A stretch of 64,000 bases of DNA. It comes from Candidatus Saccharimonadota bacterium (GTDB lineage Bacteria; Patescibacteriota; Saccharimonadia; Saccharimonadales; UBA4665). The position numbers and the translations under genes are program-made. A model generated the notes under the pieces. It was not told the origin of the DNA. It made no database searches and saw only the letters and a list, made by a program, of their open reading frames with translations. The stretch spans positions 18,885-82,884 of the forward strand of contig JBBCFY010000001.1 of NCBI GenBank assembly GCA_037200465.1, written 5' to 3'. Positions 623-36,072 of the stretch are shown piece after piece; the stretch's first letter is position 1, and every line of letters starts with the position of its first letter.

Positions 623-1297
623 ATGCCCGCCGCCATCGAGCTGAAGAATCTGACGAAAACCTACAAACTGGGTGATGAAGTGCTCAATGCGCTCGATGGG
701 GTCAGCTGCGATATCAAGTCCGGCGAATTCGTCGCCATCACCGGGCCGTCCGGTTCCGGCAAATCGACGCTGGCGAACATTATCGGTGGGCTCGATAAAC
801 CTACCTCGGGCAGTATCGTTGTTGACGGCAGTGATTTGTCGCATGTGCACGACAAGCAGCTGTCCGATTACCGCAATCATCACATCGGCTTCGTCTTCCA
901 GTCGTTTAACCTCCAAGGTACGCAGACAGCGCTCGAGAATGTCATGCTGCCTTTGGTGTTCTCGCATATGAAGAGCAAGGACCGCAAGGCCCGCGCCAAA
1001 GAGTGCCTGGAAGCAGTCGGTCTTGGTGACCGGCTCAAACACAAGCCAAGCCAGCTGAGCGGCGGCCAACGGCAGCGCGTGGCTATCGCCCGTGCACTCG
1101 CGGTCAAGCCCAGTATCATTCTGGCTGACGAGCCGACCGGTAACCTCGACACTGCCCGCGGCGACGAGATCATGAAGCTGCTGCGCGACCTGAACAAGCA
1201 GGGTATTACGCTCATCGTCATAACCCACGACATGGCTATCGCCAAGCAGGCCGATCGTATCATACATATCCAGGATGGAAAGATGACCCGTCCATGA
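623..1297 (+). CDS. ABC transporter ATP-binding protein (MacB/LolD/FtsE-like)
   Basis: Walker [13 protein letters not shown] signature [15 protein letters not shown], Walker B IILADEPT. 4-nt ATGA overlap with the downstream permease reading frame. Confidence 0.9.
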
Positions 1298-2731
1298 GAT
1301 TCTCCGATTATATACTGATAGCCTTTCGCAACATCCGCCGCCAGAAGCTGCGTAGCGCACTGACCATCTTCGCGGTGGTCATCGGCGCTACCAGCGTTAC
1401 CATCATGCTGGCGGCCGTCTTCAGCCTGAAAGGCTTCATGACCAAGCAGTTCGAAGCCAACGGTACCTTCCAGCAAGTGGCGGTTTCGCCGCAGACCGAT
1501 ATAACCTGGACCAGGGAGGTAATAATTGTACTACTTGTGTCAAGCTTACCGATGACCTGGCGACCAAGATAGCCGGTTTGCAACACGTAATCGGCGTGGC
1601 CCGCGAGACGCAAGTCAACCCATTCCAAGCGCTCATGTACGCAATCAGAAGCTGCGTACCCAGCAGGTAGTCGCATATGATACCAACGGGATCATCAAGA
1701 ATACGGTACTGGCCGCCGGGATATCAGCAGCGGCGATACGACGGGCGTACTCACCATCACCTCGGACTACGCCGATAAACTGGGATTCAAGGGAAATTAC
1801 CAGGCCTTGATCGGCAAGCAGGTCGGCCTTATGACACAGAATTACTATTCGGGCGTCGGTTCCGACCCGATTGCGGCGTTCCAGGCGCAACAGGCCTACT
1901 TCCAGTCTCATCCGGGAGCGGGCGGACAGGATTATCAACCGACACCGATCACGCTCACCGGCACGATTGTCGGTATCATGGACACTACCCAGAACAATTA
2001 TCAGATCCGAGTACCGCTCGACTGGGCCCGCGGCATGGAGGAGAACCAGATGGCGGTCGTAACGCAGGCCGACCAGGACGCCGCGCAGGCCAAATGCCGG
2101 AACAGCCACACGCCCGGCTCGTGCAACACCAGCCGGTGCCGTCTACCGTGACTACTGAGGATGAGCTGGCCAAGCAGGGTTATAACGGATTCATCGTCAA
2201 GGTCGACCAGGCGTCGAATGCCGCGAGCGTGGCCAAGACCATCCGCATACCTACAAGGTTGGGGCGGCCGATGCCCAGACCGAGATCAAGAGCCAGCTGG
2301 CCATCTTCAATATCCTCGGCCTGGTGCTGGGCGGTATCGGCGGGATAGCGTTGGTAGTTGCAGCCGTGGGTGTCGTGAACACTATGATCATGAGCATACT
2401 GGAACGGACCCGCGAGATCGGTGTGATGCGCGCCGTCGGTGCTCGCCGCAGTACCGTCAGCCTGCTGTTCACTATCGAGGCAGCATTGCTGGGATTCTGG
2501 GGCGGTGTCATCGGCCTGGCCATCGGCTACGGCGCGGTATTGGTGGCCAACCCGCTCATCAATAAACAGCTGTCCACCAATAACATCACCAGCTCCAACA
2601 TCATCACGCTGCCTATCTGGCTTATCCTGGGTGTTATCGGGCTCACTACGGTCATCGGTATCCTAGCAGGTCTGTACCCTGCCCGCCGCGCCGCCCGCCT
2701 CGACCCGGTCGAAGCCTTGCACTATGAGTAG
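1294..2731 (+). pseudogene. MacB/FtsX-type ABC permease, broken by about 5 frameshifts
   Basis: The N-terminal TM ([25 protein letters not shown]), the periplasmic-domain pieces and the C-terminal FtsX domain (MSILERTREIGVMRAVGARR...LYPARRAARLDPVEAL) are all recognisable. They lie in different frames (ORFs 1294..1572, 1807..2151, 2094..2348, 2324..2731, plus two unlisted frames between 1510 and 1800). Confidence 0.8.
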
Positions 2732-2732
2732 C

Positions 2733-3307
2733 CTAGCTCAAGTACTGCACCAGCTTTTTAGTAAAACGCTGCATATGTGGATCAAATATTGCCGGGTGTG
2801 ATTGGAGTATTTCGTTAAAGCCGAACCAATTCATATCAGTGAATTCCTGCCGGTCAAACTGCAATGGGTCGTGCATGTCGCCGTGCAGCAAGTACCATAA
2901 GCTGACGTCGGTGTGTCCGGCAGTCAGGCCAACCGTTTGTGTGACGGTGATGAAAAAAGGATGGTCATTATTTTTAAGAAATGTAGCGTCCAAGTTCACT
3001 TCTTCCAACGCCTCTCTGACCACTGTTTGTCTGGGATGTTCATTCAACTCCACATGGCCCCCGGTGGGCAGCCACAGCTGAGCCTTGATGTGGTCACCCA
3101 ATAGCAAACATTTATGTTCCGGATCGATGACTACGAAATATGAAACAAGATGCTTCGGCGGTTTGTCCGGCTTTTCTATCCTGAATATATTCGCACCACT
3201 TTCAATCCAGCCTGCCGCGTCGTCCTGTGCATGATCTCAAGCTCATCAAAAGGTTTGATGTCGTTGATCTCATCTCGGATCTGGTCCCGGACAGTCTGCA
3301 GCTTCAT
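2733..3307 (-). pseudogene. NUDIX hydrolase with one frameshift near 3225-3236
   Basis: Nudix box GGHVELNEHPRQTVVREALEEVNL. The frame stays open upstream of the listed TTG start (KPPKHLVSYFVVIDPEHKCLLLGDH) up to a stop at 3237-3239, with no start codon. A second frame from ATG 3307 encodes MKLQTVRDQIRDEINDIKPFDELEIMH and joins it after a 1-nt shift. Confidence 0.65.
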
Positions 3308-3365
3308 ATACCCGAAGCGTAGATGTAAACACCGATCAAGGCAAGCGCATTATTGACAACAAAAT

Positions 3366-3578
3366 CTAATCGCGGATACGAAGTTTGGCACGACCCTGCA
3401 TGGCGCGGAAGGCACCATGCTTCAGGTTACTGACATCAATGGTCTCGCTGCGCTTGAATGAAAGTATACGCGTGGAATTCGTACTGCCATGAAAAATACG
3501 GAACGGTTTTCCAGCCCTATAGAAGCGTCTGACCTCGGCGGCTATTTTAGAAACCCGGGCAACGTGGTCGTCTCTCAT
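3366..3578 (-). pseudogene. possible N-terminal remnant of a FAD-binding (PCMH/DWF1-like) oxidoreductase
   Basis: 70-aa ORF containing PFRIFHGSTNSTR, which I recall as an N-terminal motif of FAD-linked oxidases. The rest of such a gene (about 400 aa) is absent. Weak call. Confidence 0.3.
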
Positions 3579-3632
3579 CCATATATCCTACCAAATCAAA
3601 GCACCTTCGGAAAAAGCCCTTGGCGCACGGTG

Positions 3633-4245: not shown

Positions 4246-4311
4246 CTAATTTGGCTTGTACCAAAATCAGTAAAGAACAGGGGAGATTGTAACAGATTCG
4301 AGGGATGTTGG

Positions 4312-5073
4312 CTAGTATTGGCGGAGGGCTAGGTAGACTACGGCGCTCAACCCGATGGCGATTATGGTGATACGCAGCCAGTGGCTGGAGACTTTCTGGG
4401 CGCTGCGGGCGCCGCAGTATCCGCCGATGGTCGCGCCGGCGGCCATCACCAGGCCGGTGCGCCACTGGATCAGGTGCGAACTATACAGGCAGAGTATCGA
4501 GGTACCGGAAAGAAAGATAGCCGAGACGTTCTTCATGGCGTTCATCATGTGGGTGTCGGGCATGTTCGTGAAGCCGAGCAGCCCGAGCATGATGAAGCCG
4601 TAGCCGGCCCCGAAAAAGCCGCCGTAAAAACTTAAGGGAAGCATAATGAAACCGATAAGTACCATCGGCAGCCAGCTGCGGCGGATACCTTTGACGTGCA
4701 AGTGCAGGTGGAAATGCAGGAACGGCTGGAAGGCGAACAGCAATACGCCGAACAGCACTAGCTCCGGCACGATGCTGGTGAAATCATGTGCGGAAGTGTT
4801 ACGCAATGTCAGCGCTCCAAGTGCCGCGCCGGTTACCACCGGAAAGATGAACAACGCATAGCGCAGCGGCACCCGCTTCAGGTATTTCCAGTAGCCGATG
4901 GCCGAAGTAACCTGTCCCGGCCAGGTCACGACGCTGCCGGTGGCGTTGGCCATCAGCGGCGGCACGCCCAGCGCGATCAGCACCGGGAACCCCACGAGCA
5001 TGCCGCCGCCGGCGATGGCGTTCATGGCCCCCACCACGAACCCGGCCAGCAATAGTGCGATATCTTTTTCCAT
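4312..5073 (-). CDS. TauE/SafE family sulfite-exporter-like membrane protein
   Basis: 253 aa, about 7-8 TM helices. The N-terminal GFVVGAMNAIAGGGMLVGFPVL is typical of TauE/SafE (DUF81). Confidence 0.8.
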   Translation of the reverse strand: MEKDIALLLAGFVVGAMNAIAGGGMLVGFPVLIALGVPPLMANATGSVVTWPGQVTSAIGYWKYLKRVPLRYALFIFPVVTGAALGALTLRNTSAHDFTSIVPELVLFGVLLFAFQPFLHFHLHLHVKGIRRSWLPMVLIGFIMLPLSFYGGFFGAGYGFIMLGLLGFTNMPDTHMMNAMKNVSAIFLSGTSILCLYSSHLIQWRTGLVMAAGATIGGYCGARSAQKVSSHWLRITIIAIGLSAVVYLALRQY

Positions 5074-5596: not shown

Positions 5597-6004
5597 TTAC
5601 GGACGGAAGCCAGTGGCGATGAAGTGCTCCATGGGCAAAAAGACAGGCGAAGGTAAATCGTCCCAGTCAAACCATTGCCATTTGACCATTCTGTCCGGCT
5701 CCATGATTTGTGGCTCACCAGACTTCCAGGCAGCCTTCATATATATAGTTACATAGTGTTTGTTTTCCTTGTCAAAGATATCATTTGTGCATGTCACAAA
5801 CTCAACCTTAGCGATAGCTAGGCCTGTTTCTTCGGCAACTTCCCGAACTGCACAACCTTCGAACGATTCGCCAAATTCCAGATGTCCGCCCGGAAAGCTC
5901 CAAGTGCCCTCACCGTGCGCATTCAGACGCTGGCCCATTAATACCTTGCCGTCTCTGACCACGCATACTCCTACGCCGACTTTCGGCCTATTCTGCTCAT
6001 CCAT
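5597..6004 (-). CDS. NUDIX hydrolase
   Basis: Nudix box GGHLEFGESFEGCAVREVAEETGL; 135 aa. Paralogous to 5120..5569. Confidence 0.85.
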   Translation of the reverse strand: MDEQNRPKVGVGVCVVRDGKVLMGQRLNAHGEGTWSFPGGHLEFGESFEGCAVREVAEETGLAIAKVEFVTCTNDIFDKENKHYVTIYMKAAWKSGEPQIMEPDRMVKWQWFDWDDLPSPVFLPMEHFIATGFRP

Positions 6005-6981: not shown

Positions 6982-8847
6982 ATGGATAAAAAACCTTTAC
7001 GACCCAATGCCAAACGTAGCCAGGGAGGGCGGGGACTCAAGAACGCCGGCTTTGTCGCGCTGATAGTGCTCGTGGCGCTCATCAGCTACGCGGCTTATCG
7101 GCAACCCAGTACGCTCACCGAAATCCCGATTTCCAAGGCCGTCCAGCAAGCCGATGCGGGGCAATACCAGAAAGTGGAAGTGAGCGGCAATGAGCTGGAT
7201 ATTACCAAAAAGGGCGACAGCAAGCCGACGCTCAAGGCCTTCAAGGAAGATGGTGTCAGCCTGAAGGATGAGGGCCTGAATTATGATAAGGTCCAGGTGA
7301 GCATCAAGCCGGGCAGCAGCACTGGCGCATTGGTAGGCAGTCTGGCGGTGAACCTTATCCCGGTGCTGCTCATCGGCGGCCTATTGTACTTTATGCTTAA
7401 GAGCGCCCAGGGGCAGGGCAACCAGGCGCTCAGTTTCGGCAAATCCCGCGCCCGGCTGTACGGCAACGAGAAGGACAAGGTCAGCTTCAAGAGCGTGGCC
7501 GGCCAGGCCGAAGCCAAGCAAGACCTGGAAGAGGTCGTCGAGTTTTTGAAGTTCCCCAAGAAGTTCGCATCGCTCGGTGCACGGATTCCTAAGGGTGTTT
7601 TGCTGGTAGGCCCTCCGGGTACCGGCAAGACCTTGTTGGCCCGCGCGGCGGCAGGGGAGGCCGGTGTTCCCTTCTTCAGTATCTCCGGTTCCGAGTTCGT
7701 CGAGATGTTCGTGGGTGTCGGCGCCAGCCGCGTACGCGATCTGTTCGCCAAGGCCAAAAAGAACGCGCCGTGCATCATATTCGTCGATGAAATCGATGCC
7801 GTCGGCCGCCGCCGCGGATCCGGCATGGGCGGTGGGCACGACGAGCGCGAGCAGACCCTGAACCAGATATTGGTAGAGATGGACGGATTCGAACAGGGCG
7901 TCAACGTCATCGTGCTGGCCGCAACCAACCGCGCCGACGTGCTTGACCCTGCCCTGCTCCGCCCCGGCCGGTTTGACCGCCGCGTGAACATCGGCCTGCC
8001 CGACCGCCCAGACCGCAAAGCCATCCTGGACGTGCACTTCGAGAAGAAGCCGTTAGCCAAAGACGTGGATGTCGATGCCTTGGCCGCCAAAACGGCCGGT
8101 TCGTCCGGTGCGGATCTGGCCAACATCACCAACGAAGCTGCCATCATCGCGGCCCGCTCCAACCATACGCAGATTACTCAGGCCGACGTCACCGAAGCGT
8201 TCGAGCGCGTAGCTATCGGCCCGGAGCGCAAGAGCAAGGTTATGAACGACCATGAAAAGGAGCTGACCGCCTACCACGAAGCCGGCCACGCCATCGTCGG
8301 CCATGTGCTGCCGGATAGCGATGTCGTGCACAAGGTCACTATCATCCCGCGCGGCGGGACTGGTGGTGTCACCTGGTTCATCCCGCCCGAGGACAAGAGC
8401 TACCACAGCATCCTTGAATACAAAGACATATTGGCCCGTATGCTGGGCGGCCGCATCGCCGAGGAAGTCATCTACGGCAAGGAGCGGGTGACTACGGGTG
8501 CCGGCAACGACCTGCAGAAAGCCGCTGAGCTGGCCCGCGACATGGTCATCAACCAGGGCATGGGCACCAAGCTGCGCGACCAAGTCTTCCACGTGGAAGA
8601 GGGCATGATGCTAGAGCGTATGGTGCACGAACGTGAGTACAGCGACGACACCGCCAAGGTAATCGACCAGGAAGTAGAAGCTCTGATTACCGAAGCCGCT
8701 ACCCGCGCCCGCGCTGTCATCAAGGCAAACATCAAATACATCACGGCGCTCAAGGACAGGCTGCTCGAAAAAGAGACCGTCGACGCCGACGAAGTCCATG
8801 AACTATTCGAGGGCTCTCATCTCCCCAAAGAAGCTTCGCTCTATTGA
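6982..8847 (+). CDS. ftsH: ATP-dependent zinc metalloprotease FtsH
   Basis: N-terminal TM, AAA+ Walker A GPPGTGKT, Walker [12 protein letters not shown] region, zinc motif HEAGHA; 621 aa. Confidence 0.97.
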
Positions 8848-8961
8848 GAGAACCGAGATAGGTTCTCTCAACGCGCCGGCAAAATCGAATAGATTTTGTC
8901 GGGCTTCTCTTTCCTGAGAAGCTTATAAAAATAACTACGGAATGAATCCATAGTTATTTTT
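8845..8961 (+). terminator. array of four consecutive stem-loops downstream of ftsH
   Basis: The four stem-loops are:
- tgagagaacc/ggttctctca (8845-8870)
- caaaat/attttg (about 8878-8900)
- gcttctc/gagaagc (8904-8923)
- aaaaataactacgg/ccatagttattttt (8927-8961)
Only the last has flanking A/T tracts. Confidence 0.4.
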
Positions 8962-9936: not shown

Positions 9937-12570
9937 ATGGCACGATCACATGGCTCTCAAGATCCGACCCACGACGACAGCGGCGTGGTGCTTTTGCTGC
10001 AGGTGCCGCGGGCGAATGAAAAGAAAGAGCTGGCGGCCGAACAGATGTTCGCCAGCCTCCACGGCCTGCTCACCATCCCGCAGCCGGGACTCATGAAGGC
10101 CGCTAGGCGCGAACGCCTGAGCTTCGAGATCGCCGTGCGCGAACGCCGCATCGGCTTCTACGTGTGGGTGCCGAACTATCTGAAAAGCTATGTGGAAGAG
10201 CAGATTTATGCCCAGTATCCGACGGTCCACATCAGTGAGGTCGAAGACTACGCCATGTACCGTGAGGAGCAGCAGTACCCCACTCAGCTGGTGACCGAGC
10301 TGAAATTCGTCGGCCACAATGCCCTGCCCATCAAGACGTTCCAGAGTTTCGAGGTCGATCCGTTGGCGGCCATCACGGCCACGCTGGCGAAATTCACCGA
10401 TCAGGAAGAGGCCTGGGTGCAGCTGCTCATAAGGCCGGCACCGAGCAATTGGCACAAGAACAGCGAACGGTACATATCCGGTATAAAAGGCGGCGGGGGT
10501 ACCAGCACCAAAGGACTCATGAGCGCGCTGTGGAAGCCGCCCGAGACCGTGACTGAGACGGTGAAGCTGAGCGATTACGAAACCACCCGGGCCAGCGCTG
10601 CCGTGGAAAAGACCCAGAAACTGGCGTTCGAGACCCAGCTGCGCATCGTGTACCGCGGCAATACCACGCCGCAACAAGCGCAGCTCCAGATGCAGAGCAT
10701 CATCGCCAGCTACAAGCAGTTCAATAGCACCTACCTGAACGGTTTCGAGGCCAAGCGGGTACTGGATGATCCGTTCCTGGTGGCGCACTACCGTTCCCGG
10801 GCATTCAACCGGGCCGGCTTCGTCTGCAACATCGAGGAAGTCGCCACGCTCTATCACCTGCCCCACACCAATGTGGAGACGCCGTTTATCCTGTGGGCTA
10901 CCAGCCAGACCGCCGAGCCCCCGGCCAATCTGCCGGTAGTGACACCCGAGACGGAGCACGAGCTGAGTCCCGTCGCCGCGACGAATTTCCGTGGGCACAA
11001 CACCATGTTCGGCATGCCGCGGAGTGACCGCGGTCGGCACTTGTACATCATCGGACAGACCGGTACCGGTAAATCCGGTATGTTGGAGCTGCTGACGATC
11101 TCCGATATCTATAGTCCGTATGGCTTCGCCGTCATCGATCCGCACGGCGATTATGCCCAGGCAGTGCTCAAGCGGATTCCGGCCGAGCGGGCTGCCGATG
11201 TGGTGTATTTCAACCCGGCCGACACCGATTTCCCGATGGGTTTCAACCCGCTCGAGGTCTACGATCCGAAGCTCAAGACGCACACCTGCTCGGAGCTGAT
11301 CGGTGTCATCAAGCGTATATTCGAGAATAGTTGGGGCCCGCGGCTGGAGTATATCCTGCGTTATTCCATCTTGGCGCTGCTTGATTATCCGGACGCGACG
11401 ATGCTCGACATCACGCGTATCCTGACCGAGAAGAAATTCCGGAACGATGTGCTGAAATACGTCGCGGATCCGGTGGTGCGGAACTTCTGGACTATCGAGT
11501 TCGCCAGCTGGAACGAGCGGTTCATGACCGAAGCCGTGGCGCCGATCCTCAACAAGGTCGGGGCGTTTACGGCCAATCCGCTGGTGCGCAACATCATCGG
11601 CCAGCCCAAGAGCAGCTTCAACATTCGGCAGATCATGGATGAGCGCAAGATCCTGATCGTGAACTTGAGCCGCGGGCTGGTGGGCGAGGACAACGCTGCC
11701 CTGCTCGGTGCGCTGCTGGTCACCAAGATACAGATGGCGGCTATGAGCCGGGCTGACATATCCGGCGAAGACCGGACGCCGTTCTACCTGTATGTGGATG
11801 AGTTCCAGAACTTTGCTACCGACAGTTTCGCGACTATCTTGAGCGAGGCGCGCAAATACGGCCTGAACCTGACGGTCGCCAACCAGTACACGGCGCAGAT
11901 GATGCAAGAGGTCAAGGATGCCGTGTTCGGTAACGTCGGTTCCATCATCTCGTTCCGGACCAGCGCAGACGATGCCCGGGTGATGCTGAAGTACTTCGAG
12001 CCGAAGTTCGAGGAGCACGATATCGTGCATATGCACAACCGCCACTTCGCCATCAGCATGACCATCGAGGGTGAGAAGGTGCCTGCCTTCTCGGCGATCA
12101 GCCTGAACTTGCCGGCCTTCGGTGCCGACTACAGCCCGCAGATCATCGCGCACAGCCGCGCCCAATATTCCCAGAGCCGTGAGTCCATCGAACGCTATGT
12201 GGCGGATCACTACCTGACGAGCGAGAGTGCTGAACTCAAGCAAGGCGAACCGCGGGCCAGTAAGCCCCAGCCTGCGCCGCGACCGCCGGCCGGACCGACT
12301 CCCCGCGCCGTGTCAGCACCGGCGCCTGAGGCTTCCAAGCCCCGCCCGGCGGCCAAAGCACCCCAGTCTCCGGCTGCTGCGCTATCACAGGCGGTCTTGG
12401 GCAAACTTGCTCCCGTTCCGATCTCGCTCGCTACCGGTGAAGATGCCAAGCCGAAACGCAAACGCGTCCGCCACCGCAAGCGCAAGACCGTCGACGGCAA
12501 GCCGCCCACCGGCCCGACGACTGCCCAGGTAGCCCGGGCTATCGAAGAGGGCGTCATCCACTTGAATTAG
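9937..12570 (+). CDS. VirD4/TraD/TraG-like (DUF87/HerA-FtsK superfamily) P-loop ATPase with proline-rich basic tail
   Basis: SD gggagg precedes the start. Walker A IIGQTGTGKSG and Walker B FYLYVDEFQNFAT are present. The C-terminal 130 aa are Pro/Ala/Lys-rich and low-complexity. 877 aa. Confidence 0.8.
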   Translation: MARSHGSQDPTHDDSGVVLLLQVPRANEKKELAAEQMFASLHGLLTIPQPGLMKAARRERLSFEIAVRERRIGFYVWVPNYLKSYVEEQIYAQYPTVHISEVEDYAMYREEQQYPTQLVTELKFVGHNALPIKTFQSFEVDPLAAITATLAKFTDQEEAWVQLLIRPAPSNWHKNSERYISGIKGGGGTSTKGLMSALWKPPETVTETVKLSDYETTRASAAVEKTQKLAFETQLRIVYRGNTTPQQAQLQMQSIIASYKQFNSTYLNGFEAKRVLDDPFLVAHYRSRAFNRAGFVCNIEEVATLYHLPHTNVETPFILWATSQTAEPPANLPVVTPETEHELSPVAATNFRGHNTMFGMPRSDRGRHLYIIGQTGTGKSGMLELLTISDIYSPYGFAVIDPHGDYAQAVLKRIPAERAADVVYFNPADTDFPMGFNPLEVYDPKLKTHTCSELIGVIKRIFENSWGPRLEYILRYSILALLDYPDATMLDITRILTEKKFRNDVLKYVADPVVRNFWTIEFASWNERFMTEAVAPILNKVGAFTANPLVRNIIGQPKSSFNIRQIMDERKILIVNLSRGLVGEDNAALLGALLVTKIQMAAMSRADISGEDRTPFYLYVDEFQNFATDSFATILSEARKYGLNLTVANQYTAQMMQEVKDAVFGNVGSIISFRTSADDARVMLKYFEPKFEEHDIVHMHNRHFAISMTIEGEKVPAFSAISLNLPAFGADYSPQIIAHSRAQYSQSRESIERYVADHYLTSESAELKQGEPRASKPQPAPRPPAGPTPRAVSAPAPEASKPRPAAKAPQSPAAALSQAVLGKLAPVPISLATGEDAKPKRKRVRHRKRKTVDGKPPTGPTTAQVARAIEEGVIHLN

Positions 12571-14273: not shown

Positions 14274-16148
14274 ATGAAACAGGATCATATCCGCAATTTC
14301 TGCATCATCGCGCACATCGACCACGGTAAGTCTACCCTGGCCGACCGTTTGCTGGAACTGACCGGGACGGTGGAGAAGCGCAACATGAAGGCGCAGCTGC
14401 TGGACCGGATGGATCTGGAGCGGGAAAAGGGTATAACCATCAAGCTGGCCCCGGTGCGTATGGCATACAAAAACTACGAGCTGAACCTTATCGACACGCC
14501 CGGGCATGTCGACTTCAGCTATGAAGTCTCGCGCAGCCTGCAGGCCTGCGAAGGCGCGCTGCTGGTGGTGGACGCGTCGCAAGGAATCCAAGCCCAAACA
14601 TTGGCGAATGTGTATCTGGCGATGGCAGCCAATCTGACGATTATCCCCGTTTTGAATAAGATTGACCTGCCAGCCGCGGATGTGGAACGTGTCGGCGCGG
14701 AAATTGTCAGCCTGCTCGGCTGCAAGTTCGAAGACATCCTGCAGATTTCTGCCAAGACGGGTATGGGCGTAGATATGGTGCTAGAGCGGATTGTCGCGGA
14801 TGTGCCGGCGCCCAAGGAATCGACCATGCCTGAAACGCGTGCACTTATCTTTGACAGTTATTACGATGATTACCGCGGGGTAATTCTTTACATTCGTGTG
14901 GTAGATGGGGAGATATCCAAGAATTCACAGATAAAAATGCTCAATACGAGCGCACAGGGTCTCGCGTTAGAAGTCGGTGCACTGACACCTGAGATGACGC
15001 CGGGTACAATACTAAAAGCTGGAGAGATCGGCTATATAGTCACGAACCTGAAAACGACCCGTGACGCCAAAGTTGGAGATACTGTCACATTGGTGAGAAA
15101 TAAAATCACCGCCAACAATGTTCGCGGTGATTCTACTGGTGACCTAGCCGCCGCTGCCGTCACCGTCAAAACGAGTACTCATGATAGCCCTCCTTCCACT
15201 GATATTGTACCACTGCCTGGCTACAAAGATGTGCAGCCGTTCGTGTACGCCGGTTTTTTCCCGGAAAGCAACGAGTTTTATAACGAGCTGAAAGAGGCGA
15301 TCGAAAAGCTTTCCTTAAGCGACAGTGCGCTGCAGTACGAACCGGAAAACTCGCCGGTGCTCGGCTTTGGCGTGCGCATCGGCTTCCTGGGCTTGTTGCA
15401 TATGGACATCGTGCGCGAGCGGTTGGAAAGGGAATACAACCTGGACCTCGTGGTCACGAACCCGTCGACCGATTATCAGATCAAGCTCCTGAACGGAGAA
15501 GAGTTGGATATCAAATCGGCCGCCGATCTGCCCGACCCGTCGAAAATCGACGTCATCCGGGAGCCATGGATAAAGGGCGAGATCATCGTGCCGAAAACCT
15601 ATGTCGGCCCGGTGATCCAGCTCATCAGCGGTAAGCGCGGATTGCAAAACAATCTCAGTTATGTGGAAGACCGCGCAGTCGTCGGCTTCGAGGCGCCGCT
15701 GGCCAACCTGCTGACCGATTTCTACGACCAGCTCAAAAGCATCACCAGCGGCTACGGCAGCTTCAACTACGAGCTGGACGATTACCGAGCCGAAGACTTG
15801 GTGAAAGTCGACTTTTACGTGGCCGGCGAGCGCGTCGACGCGCTGAGCGTGATGGTGCATCGCAGTGAAGCCGAGCGGCTGGGCCGCGAAATCACCGCGA
15901 AACTAAAGGAAGTCATCCCACGCCAGAACTTCCAGGTGGCGCTGCAGGCGGCCATCGGTGGCCGGTTCATCGCCCGCGAAGACCTCAGCGCTTATCGCAA
16001 AGACGTGACGACCGGCCTGTACGGCGGCGACGTCTCCCGCAAGAAAAAAGTCCTGGCCAAGCAGAAGAAAGGCAAAGAGCGCATGAAAAAGTTTGGAAAG
16101 GTCGATATACCGGCCGAAGCCTTCACGGTGATGTTAAAGCGTGATTAA
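14274..16148 (+). CDS. lepA: elongation factor 4 (LepA)
   Basis: G1 AHIDHGKST, G3 DTPGH, G4 NKID, and the conserved C-terminal LepA domain are present. About 30 extra residues sit in domain II (NKITANNVRGDSTGDLAAAAVTVKTSTHDSPPSTDIV). Confidence 0.97.
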   Translation: MKQDHIRNFCIIAHIDHGKSTLADRLLELTGTVEKRNMKAQLLDRMDLEREKGITIKLAPVRMAYKNYELNLIDTPGHVDFSYEVSRSLQACEGALLVVDASQGIQAQTLANVYLAMAANLTIIPVLNKIDLPAADVERVGAEIVSLLGCKFEDILQISAKTGMGVDMVLERIVADVPAPKESTMPETRALIFDSYYDDYRGVILYIRVVDGEISKNSQIKMLNTSAQGLALEVGALTPEMTPGTILKAGEIGYIVTNLKTTRDAKVGDTVTLVRNKITANNVRGDSTGDLAAAAVTVKTSTHDSPPSTDIVPLPGYKDVQPFVYAGFFPESNEFYNELKEAIEKLSLSDSALQYEPENSPVLGFGVRIGFLGLLHMDIVRERLEREYNLDLVVTNPSTDYQIKLLNGEELDIKSAADLPDPSKIDVIREPWIKGEIIVPKTYVGPVIQLISGKRGLQNNLSYVEDRAVVGFEAPLANLLTDFYDQLKSITSGYGSFNYELDDYRAEDLVKVDFYVAGERVDALSVMVHRSEAERLGREITAKLKEVIPRQNFQVALQAAIGGRFIAREDLSAYRKDVTTGLYGGDVSRKKKVLAKQKKGKERMKKFGKVDIPAEAFTVMLKRD

Positions 16149-16259
16149 CGGCACTGTCTTTTTCATGCGCTCTTTTGGAAGGGTAAGCCGGTCTCGGTGG
16201 ATTTATTCCACCGCACCGCGCGTAGGGAAACCCATGGGGTTTCCCTATTGAAATGACGC

Positions 16260-16325
16260 ATGAAAAAGTTTGGAAAAGTAGACATCCCCGCCGAAGCCTT
16301 CACGGTCATGCTCAAACGGGACTAG
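16260..16325 (+). pseudogene. orphan second copy of the last 21 codons plus stop of lepA
   Basis: It encodes MKKFGKVDIPAEAFTVMLKRD*, identical to lepA residues encoded at 16083..16148. It differs at 12 of 66 nt, all synonymous or stop-for-stop. There is no RBS and no upstream frame. Confidence 0.8.
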
Positions 16326-16328
16326 GGT

Positions 16329-16916
16329 TCAGGCCGTATATTCGATAAGCTCTTGGCACAATAGGCGCACGGTCTGGAAATAGTTATCCGCGGCATCTGG
16401 TGTGTCACGTAAGGCATTAAAAGGAAAGATAAGGCTATTAGGCCGTATGTCTTTATTCACGGCACTGATATGCCGCTTATCCCATAGGACCGGGGGAGTT
16501 GCCTCCAGCTCTGTAAGCTCTGTGTCCGTCGGCAAAAATGCCCAATGCCTGGTATGCAGACTTGTGTGGGTGGAGTCGTGCACACGTACATACTGCCTGG
16601 TCATCATCGCACCCTTACTTTCTTCCGTATCGCCATCACCAGGCAGCACGCGGAATTCATCGGTTATACCGTACTCGTCGGGCTCCGTACGGCGCACAAA
16701 GGCGGGATAAACCCAATTGTGATCGGAGCCTTTGACTATCTCTATCCCGCCTTTGCTAAGGGCAATCGCACTGACGGCTTCTGAGACACCGCGCAACCGG
16801 ACTAGCAACTCTGTCGAACCGGCAAGCGGGGCATCAACCGCGACAAGCGAGTCGACAGCGTGCTTCGCATTCGCGAGAGCCTCGCTCGTTATCTGGTCCG
16901 GGGTAAGCCTACTCAT
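16329..16916 (-). CDS. hypothetical protein (195 aa)
   Basis: Long ORF convergent with lepA. No recognisable motif. Confidence 0.55.
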   Translation of the reverse strand: MSRLTPDQITSEALANAKHAVDSLVAVDAPLAGSTELLVRLRGVSEAVSAIALSKGGIEIVKGSDHNWVYPAFVRRTEPDEYGITDEFRVLPGDGDTEESKGAMMTRQYVRVHDSTHTSLHTRHWAFLPTDTELTELEATPPVLWDKRHISAVNKDIRPNSLIFPFNALRDTPDAADNYFQTVRLLCQELIEYTA

Positions 16917-19694: not shown

Positions 19695-20393
19695 ATGACG
19701 GAGCGCCAGAAACAGATCCTCAGCGCCATTATCGAGCAGTATGCCGAAGTAGCTGTGCCGGTGGGCAGTAGTTTGCTGGCTAAAGTCTTCGATGTATCCA
19801 GTGCCACCATACGCGCTGAAATGGCCGAGCTGGAGCGCTTGGGATACATAGAACAGCCGCACACCTCTGCCGGGCGCATCCCGACCGACCGCGGGTACCG
19901 GTTCTATGTGAACAACTTGGCGGCCTCCGAAGAGGGCCAGCCCGAGCGCCGCGGCGAGCGGGCGCTGACCGCCCGGGTGACCGATGGCGGCATGCCGGAA
20001 CGCACCATCCGCAACGCCGTGGACACCCTGGTGGAGCTGACCCACAACCTTGGGTTGGCTACCATCGGCAACCAGCTGTATATGAGCGGGCTCAGCAACT
20101 TGTTCGGGCAGCCGGAATTCACCACTGGCAACCAGGTGCAGCAGGTCGCCCGCCTGCTCGACAATCTCGAGCCGTGGCTGCGCGAAGCCGCGCCGAACGA
20201 ACCGCTCAGCGTGTTCATAGGCTCCGAGAACCCCATTGGACGCTCAGCCGGCGTCAGCCTTATCATCAGCCGCTTCCGCAGTCCGTTCAGCGATCATAGC
20301 TACATCGGTGTGCTTGGCCCGACACGCCAGAGCTACCGCGATGTGATGGGCTTGGTAGCGCACACCGGCAAAACACTAGAGGAGGTATTGTGA
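19695..20393 (+). CDS. hrcA: heat-inducible transcription repressor HrcA (short form, 232 aa)
   Basis: The N-terminal wHTH ERQKQILSAIIEQYAEVAVPVGSSLLA...SSATIRAEMAELERLGYIEQPHTSAGRIPTDRGYRFYV is typical of HrcA. Confidence 0.85.
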   Translation: MTERQKQILSAIIEQYAEVAVPVGSSLLAKVFDVSSATIRAEMAELERLGYIEQPHTSAGRIPTDRGYRFYVNNLAASEEGQPERRGERALTARVTDGGMPERTIRNAVDTLVELTHNLGLATIGNQLYMSGLSNLFGQPEFTTGNQVQQVARLLDNLEPWLREAAPNEPLSVFIGSENPIGRSAGVSLIISRFRSPFSDHSYIGVLGPTRQSYRDVMGLVAHTGKTLEEVL

Positions 20394-34005: not shown

Positions 34006-35421
34006 ATGACAATCAATAAGACTCTGGATACCTTAGGCTCTTCGGAAAATGTCAGTTTCCCGGAATTGGGACTGATAGATATTCCTGCGCGCACCGACAC
34101 CGGCGCGCGTACTTCAACCATTTGGGCCTCGAATATCCAGGTCATCGGCGATGAACTGCAGTTTACCGTGTTCGGTAAGGGCCATCCCGGTCATTCCGGC
34201 AAAAAGATAACGATGACCGATTTCGCCCAGTTGACCGTAACGCCATCGAACGGCATAGCGGAAGAGCGGTATGTGGTGAAGCTGTTGGTCGCCCTGAGGG
34301 ATCGGCGGATGCGCGTTTCCTTCACGCTTGCCGATCGTTCAACCCAGACCTATCCTATTCTTCTGGGGCGTAATATCTTGAAGAAGCGGTTCATAGTTGA
34401 TGTTTCGGCGGACGAGAAAACAGCCGTTGAGGACGCAAAGGTCGCAGCGAAACTTGAGCAAGCCTTTGCCGCTAAAAGATCTTCTGCCACTGTAAAATCC
34501 AGCTACAGCGGCCCCAAACTCAAAATCGCAATCCTGTCCAAGGGGCCGGGTAATTATTCGACCAAACGCATCAAAGAAGAAGCCCTAAAACATGGACACG
34601 AGGTTCGAGTCATTAACTATGCGAAATGCTATGTGACGCTCGAAAGCAACAAGCCGGTGGTGCGTTACGAGGGCGAATCGCTGCACGATATCGACGTGAT
34701 TATTCCTCGTATCGCCGCAAATCTGACAGGCTATGGTTCATCTATCGTGCGGCAGTTCGAGATGCAGAACGTGTTTACCAGTACGACATCCATAGCCATC
34801 GTCCGTTCGCGCGACAAGCTGCGCAGCACGCAGCTGCTGGCTAAGGCCGGCGTGGGCATTCCAAAGACCGTGTTCGGCCGCGAAACCGCAGACCTTGATG
34901 ACATTCTGGAGCAGGTCGGCGGTGCGCCGGTCATCATAAAAGTCGCCCGTGGTACGCACGGCAACGGCGTGGTACTGGCCGAGACGCGTAAGGCTGCTAA
35001 GGCTGTGATGCAGGCGTTCTACGTGGAGGGCGTGAGCTTTATCGTGCAAGAGTATGTGGAGGAAAGTGCCGGCACTGACATCCGTGCGTTCGTGGTCAAC
35101 GGCAAGGTGGTCGCCAGCATGAAGCGCCAGAGTCTGGACGATGACTTCCGCAGTAACCTGCACCAGGGCGGCGAAGGTTCGGCGGTAAAACTGACCGATG
35201 AAGAGCGCAAAACCGCTCAAAAGGCCGCCAAGGCCATGGGTCTGCCGATCTGCGGCGTGGATATGATGCGTTCCGACCGCGGCCCGCTAGTGCTGGAGGT
35301 CAACTCCAGTCCCGGTTTCGGCATCGAAAAGGTGACCGGCCATAACGTGGCCGAGAAGATCATCGAGTACGTCGAGCAGAATGCCAAGGGCGGCCGTCGT
35401 AAAGACAAAGTCGGCGCGTAG
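34006..35421 (+). CDS. rimK: fusion of a retropepsin-like DUF785 (RimB-like) domain and RimK-type alpha-L-glutamate ligase
   Basis: The N-terminal 135 aa contain ARTDTGARTS (a D-T-G aspartyl-protease signature) and LLGRNILKKRFIVDV. The C-terminal 300 aa are collinear with RimK (KIAILS..., VIIKVARGTHGNGVVL, FIVQEYVEES, GVDMMRSDRGPLVLEVNSSPG). Confidence 0.8.
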   Translation: MTINKTLDTLGSSENVSFPELGLIDIPARTDTGARTSTIWASNIQVIGDELQFTVFGKGHPGHSGKKITMTDFAQLTVTPSNGIAEERYVVKLLVALRDRRMRVSFTLADRSTQTYPILLGRNILKKRFIVDVSADEKTAVEDAKVAAKLEQAFAAKRSSATVKSSYSGPKLKIAILSKGPGNYSTKRIKEEALKHGHEVRVINYAKCYVTLESNKPVVRYEGESLHDIDVIIPRIAANLTGYGSSIVRQFEMQNVFTSTTSIAIVRSRDKLRSTQLLAKAGVGIPKTVFGRETADLDDILEQVGGAPVIIKVARGTHGNGVVLAETRKAAKAVMQAFYVEGVSFIVQEYVEESAGTDIRAFVVNGKVVASMKRQSLDDDFRSNLHQGGEGSAVKLTDEERKTAQKAAKAMGLPICGVDMMRSDRGPLVLEVNSSPGFGIEKVTGHNVAEKIIEYVEQNAKGGRRKDKVGA

Positions 35422-35426
35422 GACAT

Positions 35427-35451
35427 ATGAGAGGGGAATATCCCCTCTCAT
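35427..35451 (+). terminator. 11-bp perfect hairpin after the rimK fusion gene (no T-tract)
   Basis: atgagagggga-ata-tcccctctcat, 6 nt after the stop codon. Confidence 0.4.
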
Positions 35452-35556
35452 CGCGCCGGGCTTCGGCATAGCCAAAGTCTCGGGCTGCTCTCCCCTGGGC
35501 TCCAGGTCGCAATAGCTACAAGGGAAGATACATTACGCTCATGGTATTATTTAGGT

Positions 35557-36072
35557 ATGACATACCTGGTCGTATTAGCGGCCTTAGCCCTTGTGCCGGT
35601 CCTGGCGATAGTTTTTCTGCGGGTCAATGGCGCCATCGCTTTCATGAGCCTGTGCCTGGGCAGCGTGCTCGTCAGCTATACGTCGAGTGATGTCGAAGGC
35701 GTGTTCGGCAGTTTCTCGTCATCGAAAAATATGCTGACGACCAACCAGTGGGTGCAGCTGGGGTTGCTGCTGGTGCCGTTGCTGCTCACCATATTGTTCA
35801 CGCGCGGCAGTGTCAAAGGTACCAAAAAGCTTACGAACATTTTGCCCGCGCTGTCAGCCGGTCTGCTAACCGCCCTGCTGGTCGTGCCGCTATTGGGCGT
35901 GAATGTACAGCGGCAGATTCACCATCAGGCCGCCTGGACGCAGCTAAGCAATGCCCAGACCGGTGTATTGCTGGGCGGCGCGTTGTTCAGCCTGGTGTTC
36001 CTCCTGTTTACCCACCGCACCCGCAAAAGCGAAGAGGAAGGCAAGGGCAAGAAAAAGCACGGCAAACACTGA
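35557..36072 (+). CDS. hypothetical membrane protein (171 aa, about 5 TM, Lys-rich tail)
   Basis: Hydrophobic ORF. TATTAT lies 6 nt before the ATG. Confidence 0.6.
   Translation: MTYLVVLAALALVPVLAIVFLRVNGAIAFMSLCLGSVLVSYTSSDVEGVFGSFSSSKNMLTTNQWVQLGLLLVPLLLTILFTRGSVKGTKKLTNILPALSAGLLTALLVVPLLGVNVQRQIHHQAAWTQLSNAQTGVLLGGALFSLVFLLFTHRTRKSEEEGKGKKKHGKH

Follow-up and report, generated by a model that had tools for sequence, protein, structure and literature searches.

How does the end of a housekeeping gene come to be present twice, the second time as an untranslated fragment that differs from the first only at silent positions? The question is raised by a 64,000-nt stretch of contig JBBCFY010000001.1 (positions 18,885 to 82,884 of the forward strand; Candidatus Saccharimonadota, assembly GCA_037200465.1), here called the window, in which the working lepA gene (elongation factor 4; 14274–16148, forward strand; 624 aa, with Pfam matches to GTP_EFTU, EFG_C, and LepA_C) is followed closely by a second copy of its last codons. 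The host belongs to the Saccharibacteria (TM7). Its LepA is 74–89% identical to LepA from metagenome-assembled genomes of Saccharimonadales, and an identical LepA protein is also encoded on contig JBBCBH010010940.1 (GCA_037975565.1). The lepA duplication is a real feature, and the spacer between the two tails holds a copy of a structured intergenic repeat, ~90 nt long and multi-copy in Saccharibacteria. Designated E here, it resembles a small non-autonomous repeat spread by recombination. That the spacer belongs to a conserved, structured repeat family was overlooked in the original prediction for this locus, which was made from the window sequence alone.

The functional tail (copy 1; 16080–16148, forward strand, delimited by sequence comparison) comprises the last 22 lepA codons plus the stop and lies on the 5′ side of E. 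Copy 2 (16257–16325, forward strand) is an untranslated stub abutting the end of E formed by its last hairpin, P3. Both, copy 1 running from CGC ATG to GAT TAA, translate to RMKKFGKVDIPAEAFTVMLKRD followed by a stop. They differ at 12 of 69 nt with no amino acid changes: eleven differences are at third codon positions and one at a first position (TTA/CTC, both Leu), and the stop codons are TAA and TAG. The first 20 nt of the stub (16257–16276) match copy 1 exactly, and all 12 synonymous differences fall within 16277–16325. This 20-mer has two occurrences in the 64-kb window, with none expected in shuffles. An in-frame TGA (16254–16256) lies immediately 5′ of copy 2, and the stub ends 3 nt from the stop of a convergent open reading frame (ORF) at 16329–16916. 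The original prediction had described much the same arrangement (a lepA end present twice with synonymous-only divergence, an identical first 20 nt, no ribosome-binding site or upstream frame for copy 2, and 3 nt to the convergent stop), and direct comparison of the copies confirmed each point. The 108 nt between the tails are free of ORFs. Translation of copy 2 as a mini-ORF was considered and rejected as a general explanation, given the upstream in-frame stop, the lack of a ribosome-binding site, and stubs elsewhere, such as that in L053, that begin in mid-codon without a start codon.

By chance, 12 synonymous changes out of 12 would be expected with a probability of ~6 × 10⁻⁹ (at a per-site synonymous fraction of 0.21); in a simulation with only six random changes, all were synonymous in a fraction of 5.5 × 10⁻⁵. 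The tails match at 55 of 66 positions, and between-species tails at a median of 50–52. Since the stub is untranslated, divergence confined to silent positions implies that both tails diverged as working lepA ends and were joined recently; two diverged lepA alleles are evidently joined here by recombination. The original prediction had likewise held that the tails evolved as coding sequence in different lineages before being joined, which agrees both with the silent differences and with mosaic stubs in three other loci (L005, L165, and L214, described below). Within the window stub, none of five degenerate codons in the first block differs from copy 1, as against 11 of the 16 that follow (p = 0.012).

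An assembly artefact was named in the original prediction as a way in which the duplication could prove spurious, and a chimeric join of two strains' lepA ends was considered as well; the source is indeed a metagenome whose depth is low (about 3x in run X1). Nevertheless, a Logan contig of that run (8745 nt; wood-decay metagenome), built separately but possibly from the same reads as the deposited assembly, agrees with 15700–16700 throughout, without a difference or a gap. The block of identity between the copies is only 20 nt long, and the same architecture appears in assemblies from unrelated studies, namely L053, L076, and contigs from the X3 and X8 runs. An artefact can practically be dismissed, and the duplication stands.

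For comparison with relatives, 80 species-level lepA neighborhoods were used, plus metagenome contigs. In the first scan of the 80, a repeated lepA tail turned up in one further genome, L076, where lepA stops at 7875 and the repeat spans 7942–8007. Its 66-nt spacer has two features in common with that of the window, an inverted TCATGCG..TTTT segment ~13 nt past the stop and a hairpin immediately preceding copy 2. The X3 and X8 contigs also match the window spacer: at their loose ends, the lepA stop is followed by 13 nt and TTCATGCG, and the hairpin by CGCATGAA(A/G).., a second tail with the same left boundary. A first metagenome search pattern (TAAAGCGTGATTAA..TCATGCG) gave no matches. Because L076, X3, and X8 have the same layout, the arrangement recurs in several lineages. 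The stub boundary (C)GCATGAA that these three have in common with the window is found, among all E cases, only in this lepA-tail lineage, and it fits a single origin followed by spread.

The E motif was first recognized from contigs with spacers like that of the window together with sequence downstream of lepA in L039 and L053. Its consensus consists, in order, of GGGAAGAGCAGCC(C/G)GA, a variable hairpin, CC(G/C)GCGCG, and a GAGAAACC..GGTGTCTC hairpin. When 12 copies are aligned, they fold into a helix (P1) enclosing a hairpin (P2), followed by a second hairpin (P3), with compensatory changes in 15 of 23 pairs. A covariance model of E (R1) was then run against the window and the 80 relatives, where it found 13 copies (three in the window), and against metagenome contigs fetched by the core pattern, where it found 66 more, for a total of 79 copies at 65 loci. 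Over all 79, 93.5% of cells are paired and compensatory changes are seen in 19 of 23 pairs; none of 500 shuffles scored as high, and slid controls were only ~40–50% paired. G-U combinations outnumber A-C by 57 to 24, so the GGGAAGAGC strand is the folded strand of E.

The copy at lepA (16171–16261, forward strand; 43.9 bits with R1, expect value 1e-10) can be divided into a degenerate 5′ motif (16177–16191), P2 (16196–16212), CCGCGCG (16216–16222), and P3 (16223–16247). The last of these had been taken for a perfect palindrome; it is actually an 11-bp stem with a 3-nt loop. The second window copy (8830–8920, reverse strand; 77.4 bits) lies directly after ftsH, and the third (35413–35501, reverse strand; 57.6 bits) between the genes at 34006–35421 and 35557–36072. 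Rfam has no relevant match at an expect value up to 10 for window positions 15800–16600 and 35330–35560, L053 positions 7700–8000, or L039 positions 5880–6000, and a literature search for a described Saccharibacteria repeat found no paper on the motif. Ten pattern matches in viral contigs included no true E as judged by R1. The 79-copy consensus has no clear terminal inverted repeats, the 5′ motif AAGAGCAGCC resembling the complement of the 3′ end only weakly and by eye; in the window, CTTTTTCATGCG and CGCATGAAAAAG flank E, yet CGCATGAAAAAG belongs to the lepA stub.

Duplicated gene ends also flank E elsewhere. When 150 nt on each side of every copy were compared, 11 of 79 copies (14%) had direct repeats of 18–54 nt that reached the cut-off score of 15; the maximum among 232 shuffled flank pairs was 11. 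By full comparison the repeat in the window is 69 nt long, and stubs overall range from 18 to 69 nt. Five of the cases are at lepA: besides the window tail, they are a perfect 43-nt tail repeat in L053 (7737–7779 and 7863–7905) and heads beginning at the ATG in L065 (44–50 nt, perfect), L039 (20–26 nt), and L005 (32 nt plus diverged codons 2–5). Other genes are represented by two gene tails in L214, a 48-nt gene tail in L166, the rplF stop and rplR start in L191, and the msrA head in L165, and in L164 the repeated sequence is a non-coding terminator hairpin. The order of parts recurs: a working gene end, E entered from its GGGAAGAGCAGCC side, P3, and a non-functional stub repeating the last or first 18–69 nt of that gene. 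In all nine informative cases the working gene end is on the 5′ side of E and the stub starts between −11 and +12 nt from the 3′ end of the R1 model, at P3. The ends of the inserted segment are ragged, with 3–37 extra nt on the 5′ side and 4–20 on the 3′ side. Four stubs (those of the window, L005, L165, and the one at position 1870 in L214) are mosaic, identical or nearly so to the working end beside E and diverged away from it. In L005 the stub encodes MNQDH.. and the working head MDQSR..; both types occur among relatives, and the diverged stub parts resemble natural alleles. The L166 locus (1119–1300) has a gene tail, E, a tail stub, and then a partial second E with an internal deletion, and is the only case resembling tandem duplication of a tail-plus-E unit.

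The lepA locus of the window has one further repeat. The sequence at 16074–16091 (forward strand), encoding the lepA residues K E R M K K and spanning the start of the duplication at 16079|16080, forms an 18-nt perfect inverted repeat with its exact reverse complement at 16158–16175 (forward strand), between the lepA stop and the core of E. The original prediction had the spacer beginning with this sequence; the exact complementarity is as described, but the arm starts 9 nt into the spacer. Homologous TTCATGCG..TTTT segments are found at the same place in L076 and the X3 and X8 contigs. In the predicted RNA fold the arms form an 18-bp long-range stem enclosing the last 19 codons (minimum free energy −84.4 kcal/mol, z −6.2). 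The idea that such a repeat is a general feature of E was discarded, as it is unique among the 79 copies and the next best score, 9, is within background; it is specific to the lepA-tail lineage. Read on the reverse strand, the 18-nt lepA match directly follows E and spans 16079|16080, in the position of a guide after its scaffold, as in the reRNA of the transposon nuclease TnpB; no nuclease gene is adjacent, and there is no such match at the other E copies.

Of the histories that could be proposed for the window locus, the one that seems on balance probable has two steps and ends with recombination between two diverged lepA alleles, one with E and one without, in which one of the crossovers fell within the stub. 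In the first step, E would have reached the lepA terminus in some lineage, and the gene end would have been duplicated with it; the L053 tail (43 nt) and the L065 head (44 nt), whose repeats are perfect, may be fresh examples of this stage. In the second, the E-bearing allele would have entered a diverged, E-less lepA by homologous recombination, probably after putative DNA uptake, with one crossover in the body of lepA and the other inside the short stub, so that gene body and stub would serve as two homology arms. The resulting stub would be donor-like beside E and resident further away. Such a second step would explain the 20-nt identity next to E, the switch to a synonymous-only tail, and the fact that the stub is still a perfect lepA tail though untranslated. 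As to the first step, the polarity, the variable length of the stubs, and the ragged ends point to one-ended joining of P3 inside a gene end, and against a symmetric transposase cut.

Several observations count against this history or limit its reach. It does not account for the 18-nt inverted repeat, and the L039 stub shows the opposite of the mosaic pattern, with its mismatches beside E. Sixty-eight of the 79 E copies have no detectable flanking repeat, so that duplication does not accompany E necessarily or permanently. In the window alone, the mosaic test reaches only p of about 0.01, and lepA dominates the duplication cases in the genome set because loci were selected by lepA. No same-species donor or empty-site allele was found, and as all relatives are at most 79% identical in lepA DNA, no recombination tract could be mapped: sliding identity along lepA cannot reveal a foreign tract when the nearest relative is only 79% identical, and the same holds for L005 against L065.

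A single event is one alternative. Homology-facilitated illegitimate recombination, as described for natural transformation in Acinetobacter, Pseudomonas stutzeri, and pneumococcus, could have anchored a foreign lepA 3′ part with its own flank (including E by chance) in lepA and joined its far end illegitimately inside the resident tail, with E entirely passive. There too, homology anchors the incoming DNA at one end, within a conserved gene, and the far end is non-homologous; the outcome is mosaic alleles and possibly duplicated or deleted recipient sequence. This account fits the synonymous-only divergence, with the foreign allele on one side of the joint and the resident on the other, and the resemblance of stub alleles to variants that occur naturally in other lineages. 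Downstream of lepA, synteny among relatives is lacking, which would leave no homology to use there, and L039, where lepA is followed by E without a stub, could represent the donor type. Random fragment ends, however, would not place the stub within ~12 nt of P3 in 11 of 11 cases or produce the same polarity in nine of nine; the joint is always at P3 of one repeat family. The identity blocks beside E (20 nt in the window, 32–43 nt in L005 and L214) exceed the usual microhomology of illegitimate joints, those of 14–43 nt instead suggesting later homologous spread through the stub, and the perfect 43–50-nt repeats in L053 and L065 would require donors identical in coding sequence with unrelated flanks. 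A single step seems rather unlikely: it accounts for the joined alleles, but neither for the constant position of the joint at P3 nor for the long identity blocks. One of the alternatives in the original prediction, a xenologous lepA allele with an illegitimate downstream junction, comes close to the data. The direct repeats of 18–54 nt at 14% of E copies, several of them perfect, and the purely non-coding terminator-hairpin repeat in L164 also suggest a non-autonomous transposon making long, variable target-site duplications, with the lepA tails then diverging in place. There is precedent in IS1549 and IS1634, whose variable direct repeats of 8–514 bp have no accepted mechanism and which resemble E in duplicating tens of bp of target (PMC2266710). 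These are, however, 1.5–2-kb elements with a DDE transposase and inverted ends, while E is ~90 nt, non-coding, and strictly polar, with no clear inverted ends. In-place divergence of an untranslated stub cannot yield 12 of 12 synonymous changes, no transposase family recurs beside E, the ends of the inserted segment are ragged, and a symmetric staggered cut does not predict a polarity of nine in nine. This origin is accordingly improbable.

Integrative elements are known that rebuild the 3′ end of a target gene at attachment (att) sites in tRNA, tmRNA, and protein genes, and their deletion remnants include cis-mobilizable elements. A scar of this kind, left by an element targeting the lepA 3′ end, was the other alternative in the original prediction. 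In that case an integrase-driven element or prophage would have supplied a replacement tail, and its interior would later have been deleted, leaving the shared core CGCATGAAAAAGTTTGGAAA. The layout resembles attL and attR around such a site in that the replacement end comes first, the end it displaced is repeated directly behind it, and the repeat opens with a block of identity. No recombinase gene was found, however, among the scanned neighbors (a TrwB-like ATPase, MurJ, LepA, two ORFs without matches, AhpC, and ADK). No viral contig carried a lepA tail alone: the 34 loci from a peptide scan of IMG/VR all had full-length or nearly full-length lepA and belonged to other phyla, and a DNA-pattern scan of IMG/VR for an attP-like lepA tail gave one chance match inside an unrelated ORF. 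The insert is only ~110–180 nt and is a conserved folded repeat, and stubs are also found at lepA heads, rplF/rplR, msrA, and other genes, with lengths of 18–69 nt and no fixed core. With many targets, variable length, no recombinase, and no phage or plasmid carrying only the lepA tail, the att-type scar was not borne out and is very improbable. A diversity-generating retroelement was considered as well, as its variable and template repeats likewise place a second version of a gene's terminal part nearby and have a hairpin near the repeat end. It was rejected: the differences are not adenine-specific (A occupies only three of the 12 differing positions in copy 1 and three in copy 2), there is no reverse transcriptase or accessory gene within ~6 kb on either side, and LepA is not a variable ligand-binding protein.

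Returning to the two-step history, it leaves a choice as to which tail is the resident one. The original prediction took copy 2 for the ancestral terminus. Codon choice lends this slight support: copy 1 contains codons seldom used in this genome (TTA 3%, CGT 11%, ATA 16%), for a likelihood ratio of ~6 in favor of copy 2, which may thus be slightly favored as the resident tail. The argument from the neighboring gene fares less well. The 195-aa ORF converging on the stub (16329–16916, reverse strand) has no match in Pfam, NCBIfam, PHROGs, or PADLOC, and no homologue in the 80 relatives or, other than itself, among 5.8 billion proteins; its G+C content at third codon positions is 0.58, against 0.7–0.8 in neighboring genes, and it may be foreign, fast-evolving, or not a gene. 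In the closest relative, L001, the next gene is a 207-aa ORF directly convergent to lepA, and the sequence downstream of lepA is not syntenic among relatives. Comparison of lepA 3′ regions, which had been proposed as a way to decide, showed that tail-to-tail identities with relatives do not discriminate the native copy. The mirror image, in which the working tail and E are resident and the stub and downstream DNA incoming, is equally possible.

Saccharibacteria and other Patescibacteria have tiny genomes in which few mobile elements have been described, and they are thought to depend on the uptake of foreign DNA. Against this background a more speculative proposal can be put forward tentatively: E may be an undescribed non-autonomous selfish element of Saccharibacteria whose P3 end becomes joined inside a conserved gene, within a few dozen bases of its start or end, with duplication of the gene end, after which stub and gene body would act as built-in homology arms for moving into E-less alleles following DNA uptake. 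In the lepA-tail lineage, the guide-like 18-nt inverted copy of the junction could aid targeting. Among known small structured intergenic repeats, E can be compared with repetitive extragenic palindromes (REPs), the bacterial interspersed mosaic elements built from them, and Correia repeats, which are also small, hairpin-forming, multi-copy, placed shortly behind stop codons in both orientations, and unevenly distributed among relatives. It differs from them in having a three-helix fold and single-stranded motifs conserved across many species, and in the long gene-end duplications at some copies. Like miniature inverted-repeat transposable elements it is multi-copy, non-coding, and present or absent at orthologous sites among relatives, but it lacks their short, fixed-length target-site duplication, and no parent insertion sequence or transposase was seen in the fetched contigs.

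The distribution of E is patchy, with copies in eight of the 80 species-level lepA neighborhoods and directly beside lepA in no more than a few of these species. Almost all are intergenic, often 5–30 nt past a stop codon, and the flanking genes are in ++ (22), −− (13), +− (8), and −+ (3) orientations. Recurrent sites include CIRCE-hrcA, mraZ-rsmH, and murJ-lepA. When the 443 ORFs flanking E in the fetched contigs were clustered, all recurring families were housekeeping ones, without a recurrent transposase, recombinase, or reverse transcriptase; nor was a REP-associated tyrosine transposase (TnpA-like) seen among them. Copies between the CIRCE operator and the hrcA start, in sense orientation, occur in L006 (9530–9621), L020 (8628–8718), and L065 (10077–10167), and the hrcA gene of the window (19695–20393) is without E. 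Four metagenome contigs (L149, L205, L223, and L235) have an MraZ-like ORF immediately 5′ of E, and three of them have the same downstream ORF family, probably rsmH. In L140 there are four copies within 2.5 kb (1218–3630), two of them in tandem, just upstream of the apparent 5′ end of a 23S rRNA gene. In L039, lepA is bracketed by two inverted copies, at 5895–5984 (reverse strand) and 7791–7883 (forward strand), with a head stub upstream and no tail stub, a layout like that of a composite cassette.

At the ftsH-side copy of the window, the ftsH stop (8845–8847) lies inside the P3 stem, so that the element overlaps the gene end; the codons with which ftsH originally ended could have been replaced by E. 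This copy is flanked by an 8-nt direct repeat, AGAAGCTT (8829–8836 and 8910–8917), which is within background range; an AT-rich, terminator-like hairpin follows, the whole region spanning 8829–8950.

The genes adjoined by E (lepA, ftsH, hrcA, mraZ/rsmH, and ribosomal protein genes) are housekeeping genes, and its stubs may be misannotated as small ORFs or pseudogenes and can break assemblies at conserved marker genes. If the polar gene-end duplications and their spread between diverged lineages are as proposed, E would be a new marker of gene flow in Saccharibacteria and Patescibacteria and a candidate for a new insertion mechanism. The order of gene end, insert, and stub would also be a natural design for marker insertion in transformable Saccharibacteria, for which genetic studies are reported.

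A few other features of these loci can be recorded. LepA varies from 592 to 631 aa across the window, L003, L024, L042, L065, L070, and L076 through unrelated insertions at three surface positions, a 32-aa insertion from about residue 308 in the window and others after residue 67 or near residue 180 in other genomes. A connection between the length difference (624 versus ~592 aa) and the duplicated tail was ruled out, the cause being these unrelated loop insertions. Between ftsH and murJ, the window encodes an 877-aa protein (9937–12570, forward strand) with weak matches to the TrwB/TraD coupling proteins and HerA (DUF87); it recurs at 13 of the 80 loci of relatives and so probably belongs to the core gene set, not to a conjugative element. 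Upstream of lepA in L076 there is a LOOT RNA (RF03000, 71 bits; 4271–4399, forward strand). Finally, many provirus predictions of other phyla in IMG/VR (L083–L116) end a few bases from the 3′ end of a full-length lepA, which suggests that lepA often marks a predicted prophage boundary in those phyla, unrelated to the Saccharibacteria element.

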